From Escherichia coli (GTDB lineage: Bacteria; Pseudomonadota; Gammaproteobacteria; Enterobacterales; Enterobacteriaceae): a stretch of DNA of 64,000 nucleotides. The stretch is from assembly GCF_024700885.2 (NCBI RefSeq), contig NZ_CP117016.1. The stretch is one strand, 5' to 3'. Position 1 is the first letter of the stretch, and every line of letters starts with the position of its first letter. Below, in pieces: positions 4,358 through 44,311 of this stretch. Both the position numbers and the translations under genes were made by a program. The notes below the pieces were generated by a model that was given only the letters and a program-made list of their open reading frames with translations, did not search any database and was not told the DNA's origin.

Positions 4358-5551
4358 GTGTTTCAAAAAGTTGACGCCTACGCTGGCGACCCGATTCTTA
4401 CGCTTATGGAGCGTTTCAAAGAAGACCCTCGCAGCGACAAAGTGAATTTAAGTATCGGTCTGTACTACAACGAAGACGGAATTATTCCCCAACTGAAAGC
4501 CGTGGCGGAAGCGGAAGCGCGCCTGAATGCACAGCCTCATGGTGCTTCGCTTTATTTACCGATGGAAGGGCTTAATAGCTATCGCCATGCCATTGCGCCG
4601 CTGCTGTTTGGTGCGGACCATCCGGTACTGCAACAACAGCGCGTAGCAACCATTCAAACCCTTGGCGGCTCAGGGGCATTGAAAGTGGGCGCAGATTTCC
4701 TGAAACGCTACTTCCCGGAATCAGGCGTCTGGGTCAGCGATCCTACCTGGGAAAACCACGTAGCAATATTCGCCGGGGCTGGATTCGAAGTGAGTACTTA
4801 CCCCTGGTATGACGAAGCGACTAACGGCGTGCGCTTTAATGACCTGTTGGCGACGCTAAAAACATTACCTGCCCGCAGTATTGTGTTGCTGCACCCATGT
4901 TGCCACAACCCAACGGGTGCCGATCTCACTAATGACCAGTGGGATGCGGTGATTCAAATTCTCAAAGCCCGCGAGCTTATCCCATTTCTTGATATTGCCT
5001 ATCAAGGATTTGGTGCCGGTATGGAAGAGGATGCCTACGCCATTCGCGCCATTGCCAGCGCTGGATTACCCGCTCTGGTGAGCAATTCGTTCTCGAAAAT
5101 TTTCTCCCTTTACGGCGAGCGCGTCGGCGGACTTTCTGTGCTGTGTGAAGATGCCGAAGCCGCAGGCCGCGTACTGGGGCAATTGAAAGCAACAGTTCGC
5201 CGCAACTACTCCAGCCCGCCGAATTTTGGTGCGCAGGTGGTGGCTGCGGTGCTGAATGACGAGGCATTGAAAGCCAGCTGGCTGGCGGAAGTAGAAGAGA
5301 TGCGTACTCGCATTCTGGCGATGCGTCAGGAACTGGTGAAGGTATTGAGCACAGAAATGCCAGAACGCAATTTCGATTATCTGCTTAATCAGCGCGGTAT
5401 GTTCAGTTATACCGGTTTAAGTGCCGCTCAGGTTGACCAACTACGTGAAGAATTTGGTGTCTATCTCATCGCCAGCGGTCGCATGTGTGTCGCCGGGTTA
5501 AATACGGCAAATGTACAATGTGTGGCAAAGGCGTTTGCTGCGGTGATGTAA
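4358..5551 (+). CDS. tyrB: Aromatic-amino-acid aminotransferase
   Basis: ORF track starts at TTG 4316; trimmed to GTG 4358 ([16 protein letters not shown]) giving 397 aa as in TyrB. Confidence 0.93.
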
Positions 5552-5772
5552 TGCAGGAAAGCAGGCTGGAGTTACCCAGCCTGCAGTGAAATTAAACTGT
5601 TGTCGCTTTCACTCTTGCTTTATAGATGATTTTTTTGATGCCATCGTTCTACGTGAGAGGTAATAAAACGTTGTTAGTTCTAACTTGTTAAGTTTATCCC
5701 AATGTTCTGGAGTGCTTTTCCCTGTTTTACCGTGTGGAATAATAATTTTTGCACATCTAACCATTATTAAAT

Positions 5773-6294
5773 TTAATAATAAGTATCGGGTTTGTTACGA
5801 TAGAATTTTTCTATATCCTCAAGAATATGCTTTGCCTTATTGCCTGTGACTATCTGAGATTCAATTATAGTATCGTTAAATTCTAAAGTTAAAGAGAACT
5901 CTTTTTTTCCGCTTTGTGTAAGTTTAACCTTATATTGATTACCAATATCAAATAAAAAGGTCCTGTAATGAGAATAATCACCTTTAACCTCCTCGGCAAA
6001 ACAGCAAAGCGTGCAAATATACATACAATCTTTCTTACCCCTGATTTTGTTAACTAAATCAATAAATGCGTGAAAAACTGTACTTGCAATAGAACTTGAT
6101 ACTTCTTCTCCAGGTCTACAAAAATCTTTTGCAATTTTTAACTGTGTTTCTATATATAAAAAGAGATCTTTGGCATAAGAGAAATCTTTGGCATAAGAGA
6201 TATCTTTGGCATAAGAGATATCTTTGTTATTTAGTGTATCTAGCTCTACAGGTAAAGATGTCGTTTTGTTGCTATTCACATTTGATATATTCAT
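5773..6294 (-). CDS. Hypothetical protein, AT-rich orphan at the yjbS locus (173 aa) with internal 6-aa tandem repeat
   Basis: ORF track 5773..6333; start placed at Met of MNISNVNSNK because AAGGAG lies 9 nt upstream on the coding strand. Strongly AT-rich relative to neighbours. Not recognised by me; relation to K-12 yjbS unverified. Confidence 0.5.
   Translation of the reverse strand: MNISNVNSNKTTSLPVELDTLNNKDISYAKDISYAKDFSYAKDLFLYIETQLKIAKDFCRPGEEVSSSIASTVFHAFIDLVNKIRGKKDCMYICTLCCFAEEVKGDYSHYRTFLFDIGNQYKVKLTQSGKKEFSLTLEFNDTIIESQIVTGNKAKHILEDIEKFYRNKPDTYY
6166..6226. repeat. 18-bp direct tandem repeat, about 3.4 copies (atctttggcataagagaN)
   Basis: Read directly; lies in frame within the orphan ORF and encodes KDISYA-KDISYA-KDFSYA. 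Confidence 0.85.
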
Positions 6295-6416
6295 ATCATC
6301 ATCTCCTTCGGGAGTAATAAAATTAGTCACCATTGTAGGGTAGGGGGCTGGTCAATCAGAAATCATCTTTATAAACTTCGATTGTTTTTGTAATGCTGTA
6401 TCATTAAGTTTATTAA

Positions 6417-7409
<993 letters not shown>

Positions 7410-11407: not shown

Positions 11408-11944
11408 ATGGCCAGCAGAGGCGTAAACAAGGTTATTCTCGTTGGTAATCTGGGTCAGGACCCGGAAGTACGCTACATGCCAAATGGTGGCGCAGTTGCC
11501 AACATTACGCTGGCTACTTCCGAATCCTGGCGTGATAAAGCGACCGGCGAGATGAAAGAGCAGACTGAATGGCACCGCGTTGTGCTGTTCGGCAAACTGG
11601 CAGAAGTGGCCAGCGAATATCTGCGTAAAGGTTCTCAGGTTTATATCGAAGGTCAGCTGCGTACCCGCAAATGGACCGATCAATCCGGTCAGGATCGCTA
11701 CACCACAGAAGTCGTGGTGAACGTTGGCGGCACCATGCAGATGCTGGGTGGTCGTCAGGGTGGTGGCGCTCCTGCAGGTGGCAATATCGGTGGTGGTCAG
11801 CCGCAGGGCGGTTGGGGTCAGCCTCAGCAGCCGCAGGGCGGCAATCAGTTCAGCGGCGGCGCGCAGTCTCGCCCGCAGCAGTCCGCTCCGGCAGCACCGT
11901 CTAACGAGCCGCCGATGGATTTTGATGACGATATTCCGTTCTGA
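11408..11944 (+). CDS. ssb: Single-stranded DNA-binding protein
   Basis: 178-aa [47 protein letters not shown] with Gly/Gln-rich tail ending DDDIPF. Confidence 0.97.
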
Positions 11945-43981: not shown

Positions 43982-44311
43982 ATGAAACGTTTTCCGCTAT
44001 TTCTTTTATTCACCCTGCTCACGCTGTCCACCGTTCCGGCCCAGGCCGATATTATCGACGACACCATTGGCAATATTCAGCAGGCGATTAACGATGCTTA
44101 TAACCCTGACCGTGGGCGAGACTATGAAGATTCGCGCGACGACGGCTGGCAGCGTGAAGTGAACGACGATCGGCGCAGACAATATGACGATCGCCGCCGC
44201 CAGTTTGAAGATCGCCGCAGGCAGCTGGACGATCGCCAGCGCCAGCTGGATCAGGAGCGTCGGCAGCTAGAAGATGAAGAGCGGAGAATGGAAGATGAGT
44301 ATGGGCGGTGA
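43982..44311 (+). CDS. yjdP: Secreted low-complexity Asp/Arg/Gln/Glu-rich protein
   Basis: 109-aa ORF MKRFPLFLLFTLLTLSTVPAQA (signal peptide) followed by DDRRRQ(Y/F/L)(D/E)D repeats; matches YjdP. Confidence 0.8.
   Translation: MKRFPLFLLFTLLTLSTVPAQADIIDDTIGNIQQAINDAYNPDRGRDYEDSRDDGWQREVNDDRRRQYDDRRRQFEDRRRQLDDRQRQLDQERRQLEDEERRMEDEYGR

Follow-up and report, generated by a model that had tools for sequence, protein, structure and literature searches.

An in-frame, probably near-neutral minisatellite in the Escherichia coli orphan gene yjbS

What does a tandem repeat do inside an open reading frame without recognizable relatives: does it differ among strains, does it leave the frame open, and does its length matter? 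The question is raised by a stretch of Escherichia coli DNA of 64,000 nt (contig NZ_CP117016.1 of assembly GCF_024700885.2), referred to here as the window. A first-pass annotation, made from the letters alone, had pointed to an in-frame tandem repeat of an 18-bp unit at 6166-6226, three and a half copies of it, coding for KDISYA hexapeptides within an orphan ORF. TRF places the array at 6162-6226 on the minus strand, with a period of 18 nt, 3.6 copies, 95% matches, no indels and a score of 116, and ranks it as the top-scoring tandem repeat of the whole window. When the window was block-shuffled 200 times with its composition preserved, the TRF maximum was 64 and the mean 44; no shuffle reached 116. 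Read on the plus strand, the successive units are AGAGATCTTTGGCATAAG, AGAAATCTTTGGCATAAG, AGATATCTTTGGCATAAG and AGATATCTTTG. Translation and coordinate mapping show that positions 6166-6225 (minus strand) are the codons of residues 24-43, which read KDISYA KDISYA KDFSYA KD. Both the repeat and its hexapeptide are thus as first described. The unit is a multiple of 3, and the array lies inside the minus-strand frame 5773-6294.

The ORF that carries the array spans 5773-6333 on the minus strand and would give 186 aa from its first ATG. The ATG at 6333 is without a ribosome-binding site; the ATG at 6294 has, 8 nt before it, a Shine-Dalgarno-like AAGGAG (6303-6308, minus strand), found by direct reading. 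The latter is, from the sequence, the more likely start, giving 173 aa (5773-6294, minus strand, stop included), and it is the start that PGAP/RefSeq uses for YjbS too. The composition profile places the ORF in an AT-rich islet of ~0.9 kb with ~30-32% GC (5640-6560, limits approximate). The islet lies between two flanking core genes, both on the plus strand, tyrB (4358-5551, from the ORF and the RefSeq annotation of the identical strain 1190) and aphA (6696-7409, from sequence, ORF and annotation), which is the position of yjbS in K-12. K-12-type records place yjbS at this homologous tyrB-aphA position, with the same start and an identical N-terminal sequence. The K-12-type allele combines 1.5 repeat copies with 1-nt deletions at 6119 (minus strand; seen by alignment and ORFs in 15 of 70 alleles) and at 5902, and the outcome is a YjbS of 67 aa. 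Sequence and position together identify the window ORF as the full-length form of K-12 yjbS, and the 67-aa K-12 YjbS as a frameshift remnant (pseudogene) of an ORF of 161-179 aa. RefSeq/PGAP labels intact alleles 'frameshifted', that of the window's own strain included, and often adds an 83-aa 'hypothetical protein' for the C-terminal half; NZ_CP023386, NZ_CP141061, NZ_CP077481, NZ_CP070906 and NZ_CP010140 are examples of intact alleles so mislabelled. The label arises because the reference protein is the truncated K-12 YjbS, and this mis-annotation is a systematic artefact affecting thousands of E. coli genomes.

The copy number of the array differs among strains. A search with 271 nt around the array as query gave 4,350 matching E. 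coli complete-genome records, and an evenly spaced sample of 60 rows was measured. The matched spans in this sample were 271 nt (1), 253 nt (31), 235 nt (6), 234 nt (20) and 232 nt (1), a ratio of 1 : 31 : 27 for the classes 271, 253 and 235/234/232 nt. When representatives were aligned, the 18- and 36-nt length differences fell exactly in the array and the odd single bases elsewhere. Metagenome contigs, scanned by exact pattern for a conserved 29-mer adjoining the array, contributed 69 further loci. Among the 74 sequences that could be parsed, 25 carry 1.5 copies, 45 carry 2.5 and four carry 3.5, with 19 distinct array alleles in all; 4.5 copies occur in one genome, SW4848 (179 aa). The commonest state is 2.5 copies, found in ~52% of the genomes in the 60-row sample. 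Array-length alleles differ by whole 18-nt units, the ORF being open at 161, 167, 173 or 179 aa, and each protein has between one and four full KD(I/F)SYA hexapeptides. The first-pass annotation had predicted that copy number would differ among isolates and that, with the frame kept, the result would be length polymorphism rather than on/off switching at the repeat. Both predictions hold for the alleles seen here, and the invariance that it had named as the contrary outcome was not observed. Variation of the on/off type does exist in yjbS, via frameshifts at 5902-5908 and at 6119, not via the repeat. Frame-switching by the repeat was found in none of the observed alleles, the truncations stemming from other sites. 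The array is therefore not the frame switch of a phase-variable contingency locus.

The same copy numbers have arisen more than once. The four 3.5-copy arrays, those of the window, L009, L014 and L025, show four different unit orders and must therefore have had separate origins. Each of them amounts to one 18-nt duplication from a different 2.5-copy array, and the nearest flank relatives of all four carry 2.5 copies. On a tree of the flanks of 69 sequences at least 14 copy-number changes are required, versus at least 18 for random labels, so that both inheritance and homoplasy have shaped the distribution. For the window's own haplotype, the best matches were listed, five of them were read, and the flank was compared over ~1.64 kb. 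With 0 SNPs over this flank, the array has 4.5 copies in SW4848, 3.5 in 28 genomes and 2.5 in the O166:H15 strain JNE21-003; the JNE21-003 array has lost its middle unit, and two other O166:H15 strains have 3.5 copies. Strain 1190 and ~27 other complete genomes are 100% identical to the window over the tested stretches. The occurrence of 2.5-, 3.5- and 4.5-copy alleles on flanks identical to that of the window means that these changes are recent and recurrent. Copy number shifts faster than 1.6 kb gains one substitution; yet it is common to most members of the clade. The array is only moderately unstable, since 3.5 copies are found in 28 of the 30 genomes of the window's haplotype among the matches listed, which argues, if indirectly, against hypermutability. 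By its unit, its frame, its whole-unit variation and its recurrence, the array is an intragenic in-frame VNTR, or minisatellite.

The gene around the array is decaying in many lineages. Among 70 alleles spanning the whole ORF, 36 are intact (161, 167 or 173 aa) and 34 are truncated, the latter in at least 11 different lengths. Most truncations come from a T7 homopolymer (A7 in the coding strand) at 5902-5908, minus strand, a recurrent frameshift site. The indel catalogue of the 70 aligned alleles records changes of -1, +1, -2, +5 and -10 nt in this run on different haplotypes, and the -1 change is present both on the K-12-type and on the L004-type (L009) haplotype. Some of the T7-run indels in metagenome or long-read sequences could be sequencing errors. 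In the O55/O157 alleles a 10-nt deletion (5902-5911) shortens the product to 119 aa when it is counted from the 6294 ATG, or to 132 aa with the upstream ATG as start. In the 160-aa protein of one ENA contig (P0008), 14 residues are missing after the last KD(I/F)SYA unit and before the downstream KIAKDF. This loss likely came from misalignment of the array with a degenerate further copy (AAATCTTTTGCAAT, ~6121-6134), and the presence of the degenerate copy suggests that the array was once longer.

The islet as a whole is also replaceable. In 1,047 of 5,426 complete E. coli genomes (~20%) it is replaced by an island of ~6 kb that encodes a DASS anion symporter, an Ldh-family oxidoreductase, a sigma-54-dependent regulator and a sensor kinase (for example, NZ_CP025328, 4672426-4685018). 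In one genome, SL124 (NZ_CM194971), an IS1-mediated deletion has left IS1B in place of the islet and the 5' end of aphA. The tyrB-aphA junction is a hot spot of replacement. Between haplotypes, the islet diverges most at 5680-5750, in the stretch separating the stop codon of the ORF from the tyrB terminator, where substitutions are clustered and small indels occur. Only the window-type haplotype keeps the 51-aa minus-strand ORF 5609-5764 open, so this ORF is probably not a gene. The promoter/terminator scan found promoter-like sites to be no more numerous than in shuffles. In the literature, yjbS is mentioned incidentally, in connection with an IS1 insertion, TraDIS, a promoter island and intergenic SNPs. 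The IS1 insertions in yjbS were those of macrophage-evolved clones (PMC4999529).

The claim that the ORF is an orphan survived every search. For the 173-aa protein, Pfam and PADLOC returned 0 matches each. BamG from NCBIfam (E=0.07, far below the cutoff), the best PHROGs match, a protein of unknown function (E=0.007), and the PDB sequence profile relatives (E of 0.45 or worse) were all unusable. No solved-structure, defence-system or phage relative of full-length YjbS was found, and the fold resemblances, to CdiI-type immunity proteins and secretion chaperones, are sub-threshold. A word-indexed search of 5.8 billion proteins returned E. coli copies or fragments as the only remote homologues, and so did a HMMER profile scan of 1.84 billion representatives. 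A one-genome-per-species scan of other species with two peptide patterns hit nothing except a contaminant contig in a Flavobacterium assembly. That contig (NZ_JAUFQN010000013.1, 'Flavobacterium paronense' CECT 8460) is 9.5 kb of K-12-like E. coli sequence that includes the yjbS islet, and is almost certainly contamination. Judging from these searches, yjbS is likely absent outside E. coli. A mobile origin was considered as well and rejected: there was no phage match, and the eight 'plasmid' matches were chromosome-sized or were chromosomal fragments filed as plasmids. Taken together with the substitution pattern described below, the data characterize the ORF as a putative E. coli-restricted orphan under weak purifying selection.

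In our view, the array is most probably a slippage-driven, near-neutral in-frame minisatellite. During replication, the nascent strand would mis-pair one or two 18-nt units out of register; unequal recombination between units would be a rarer route. Whole units would be gained or lost in this way, and KD(I/F)SYA hexapeptides with them, taking the protein from 161 to 179 aa. At short direct repeats of such length in E. coli, misalignment events are RecA-independent. We infer slippage as the molecular route from the pattern of the alleles. Near-neutrality is suggested by where the repeat sits. The AlphaFold2 model, built on a 10-sequence alignment (pLDDT 68, pTM 0.65), predicts a core with pLDDT 80-90 made of three helices, a four-stranded sheet and a C-terminal helix, and residues 1-37 have pLDDT <50. 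The repeat would accordingly fall within this poorly ordered N-terminal segment, immediately before the first helix modelled with confidence, where changes of length would be tolerated. The 173-aa product has neither a signal peptide nor a membrane segment (maximum 19-aa hydropathy 0.89) and is predicted to be cytoplasmic. A poorly ordered stretch of a cytoplasmic protein, encoded by a dispensable and often broken gene and varying between one and four copies, would have near-neutral consequences when its length changes. Copy-number variation would then be a nearly neutral by-product of repeat mutability and not a tuned switch.

The main rival is functional tuning, which keeps some probability because the intact gene is somewhat constrained and 2.5 copies are clearly modal. 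On this view, an N-terminal arm or helix would be longer or shorter according to how many KDxSYA units the protein has, and its length would modulate activity or partner binding, with selection keeping several alleles. In its favour are the independent and repeated gains and losses on several haplotypes, the bounded range with a mode at 2.5 copies, some purifying selection on the intact ORF, and a precedent in tolA, where repeat number alters stress tolerance (PMC3477136). Against it, 28 of 30 genomes of the window's haplotype share one copy number, the repeat occupies a low-confidence segment of the AlphaFold2 model, roughly one allele in two is truncated, 20% of genomes are without the gene, and there is no known function on which tuning could act; with no signal peptide or membrane segment, direct selection by host or phage is unlikely. 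We therefore regard tuning as unlikely. The narrow range of one to four copies, two being the commonest, could nevertheless reflect selection for an optimum instead of near-neutrality, and, given dN/dS <1 in intact alleles, repeat number may have a phenotypic effect.

A second alternative holds that the ORF is not expressed as protein at all. The repeat would then belong to the non-coding, AT-rich sequence of a 'promoter island' silenced by H-NS; changes in its length would affect no protein and would at most alter DNA curvature or H-NS binding. In K-12, tyrB/yjbS is indeed one of 78 'promoter islands', which are bound by RNA polymerase and H-NS, transcriptionally silent and associated with horizontally acquired DNA (PMC3661553). 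The gene was also free of transposon insertions in TraDIS, and many of the genes listed with it are AT-rich and were acquired horizontally (PMC5821084). Its frequent disruptions, and the lack of homologues outside E. coli in our searches, would be expected of non-coding DNA as well. However, 161-179 codons are kept open across haplotypes ~6% apart, whereas the other five frames of the region have one stop per 13.5 codons; an open frame of 173 codons in 30%-GC DNA has a chance of ~1.7e-6. The substitutions also look like those of a coding sequence. The median dN/dS over 23 distinct intact alleles, with the repeat removed, is 0.27, versus 0.049 for aphA at the same loci. Segregating changes are 16 synonymous and 27 non-synonymous, where 81% non-synonymous would be expected, a significant deficit (one-sided p=0.0045 against neutrality). 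The canonical AAGGAG 8 nt before the ATG, and a model that folds compactly on ten sequences, are likewise at odds with non-coding DNA. The open frame, the dN/dS and the putative ribosome-binding site weaken this alternative, which we consider quite improbable. The dN/dS below 1 would instead mean that the protein matters in those lineages that keep the gene.

A more far-reaching reading combines the two variable sites. Full-length YjbS would be a young, E. coli-specific protein whose activity is under two-layer built-in mutability, the repeat setting the length of the N-terminal arm and the A7 tract 300 nt downstream acting as an off/on switch; together the two would form a contingency system, operating at the level of lineages, for an intracellular function. 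We give this very little credence. That the variation reflects errors of assembly or sequencing in repetitive DNA is next to inconceivable: some of the records come from long-read-only assemblies or from metagenome contigs of low coverage, but the whole array (<=81 nt) is shorter than any read, the differences are exactly 18 nt with coherent unit order, the alleles recur in independent finished genomes (28 identical to the window and hundreds per other class), and the K-12 and O157 reference alleles differ.

As a textbook in-frame VNTR, the array changes little by itself. The identification of K-12 YjbS as a remnant has wider reach, because the intact gene is mislabelled or split in thousands of genomes, which is worth correcting. 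The window's haplotype offers a clean natural case in which repeat units are gained and lost faster than point mutations arise, three copy numbers being found on SNP-free flanks. The array could be of use as a minor marker for typing, or for slippage measurements on short arrays of few copies. In addition, an E. coli-restricted orphan poised between weak purifying selection and repeated decay is material for studies of orphan-gene turnover.

How does the yjbS array compare with known repeat systems? Contingency loci, such as neuO of E. coli K1, which is phase-variable through a heptanucleotide repeat (PMC3046976) and for whose product tuning has been proposed, resemble it in that repeat-mediated strand slippage acts, or in yjbS would act, within or close to the 5' portion of a coding sequence. 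They differ in having units that are not multiples of 3, high-frequency on/off switching and mostly surface or modification functions, whereas yjbS has an 18-nt unit and a frame that is kept in every case, and its product appears cytoplasmic by its sequence. No indication of a surface, secreted or DNA-modification role was found for the YjbS product, a signal peptide, a membrane segment, a family and defence or phage annotation all being absent. Closer to yjbS is the intragenic repeat of E. coli tolA, with 15-nt units, 8-16 natural copies and a contraction frequency of 6.9e-5 that is partly RecA-dependent (PMC3477136). It too is an in-frame repeat in an E. coli ORF, polymorphic by whole units among natural strains with the frame preserved. 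However, TolA is an envelope protein of essential function with measured phenotypes, whereas yjbS has one to four copies and encodes a dispensable orphan that is predicted to be cytoplasmic.

The window itself contains another example. The gene yjdP (43982-44311, plus strand; 'DDRRRQL repeat protein YjdP') has a repeat at 44165-44250 with a 21-nt period and 4.1 copies. Like yjbS, yjdP codes for a small protein of E. coli, contains a tandem array in frame and varies in locus length among strains; YjdP differs by a signal-peptide-like N-terminus, by its presence in nearly all E. coli and by being named for its repeat. A 601-nt query of yjdP spans 586 to 713 nt among E. coli genomes, making that locus more length-polymorphic than the yjbS array. 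Unlike the yjdP repeat, that of yjbS carries no annotation anywhere, and no mention of its unit or peptide strings was found in the literature searched. The ssb gene (11408-11944) contains two short imperfect tandem repeats, with periods of 21 and 15, in its Gly/Gln/Pro-rich linker (11788-11896, plus strand).

The E. coli MLVA/VNTR typing loci (CVN001-CVN017 and others) are likewise short arrays with isolate-variable copies that can be sized by PCR; with only four alleles, yjbS would have low discriminatory power. CVN002, an MLVA locus with a putative 18-bp unit, was considered as a match to the yjbS array; by allele range, with reported alleles reaching 18, it does not fit one to four copies. 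By allele range and by unit and peptide strings, no published E. coli MLVA locus matching the array was found in the literature searched. K-12 YjbS itself shares the locus, the start codon and the protein up to about residue 45, and has 1.5 repeat copies; it differs in being a 67-aa frameshift truncation of an ORF of 161-179 aa, which the window has in intact form. The yjbS array is a previously undescribed instance of a well-known kind, the in-frame bacterial VNTR.
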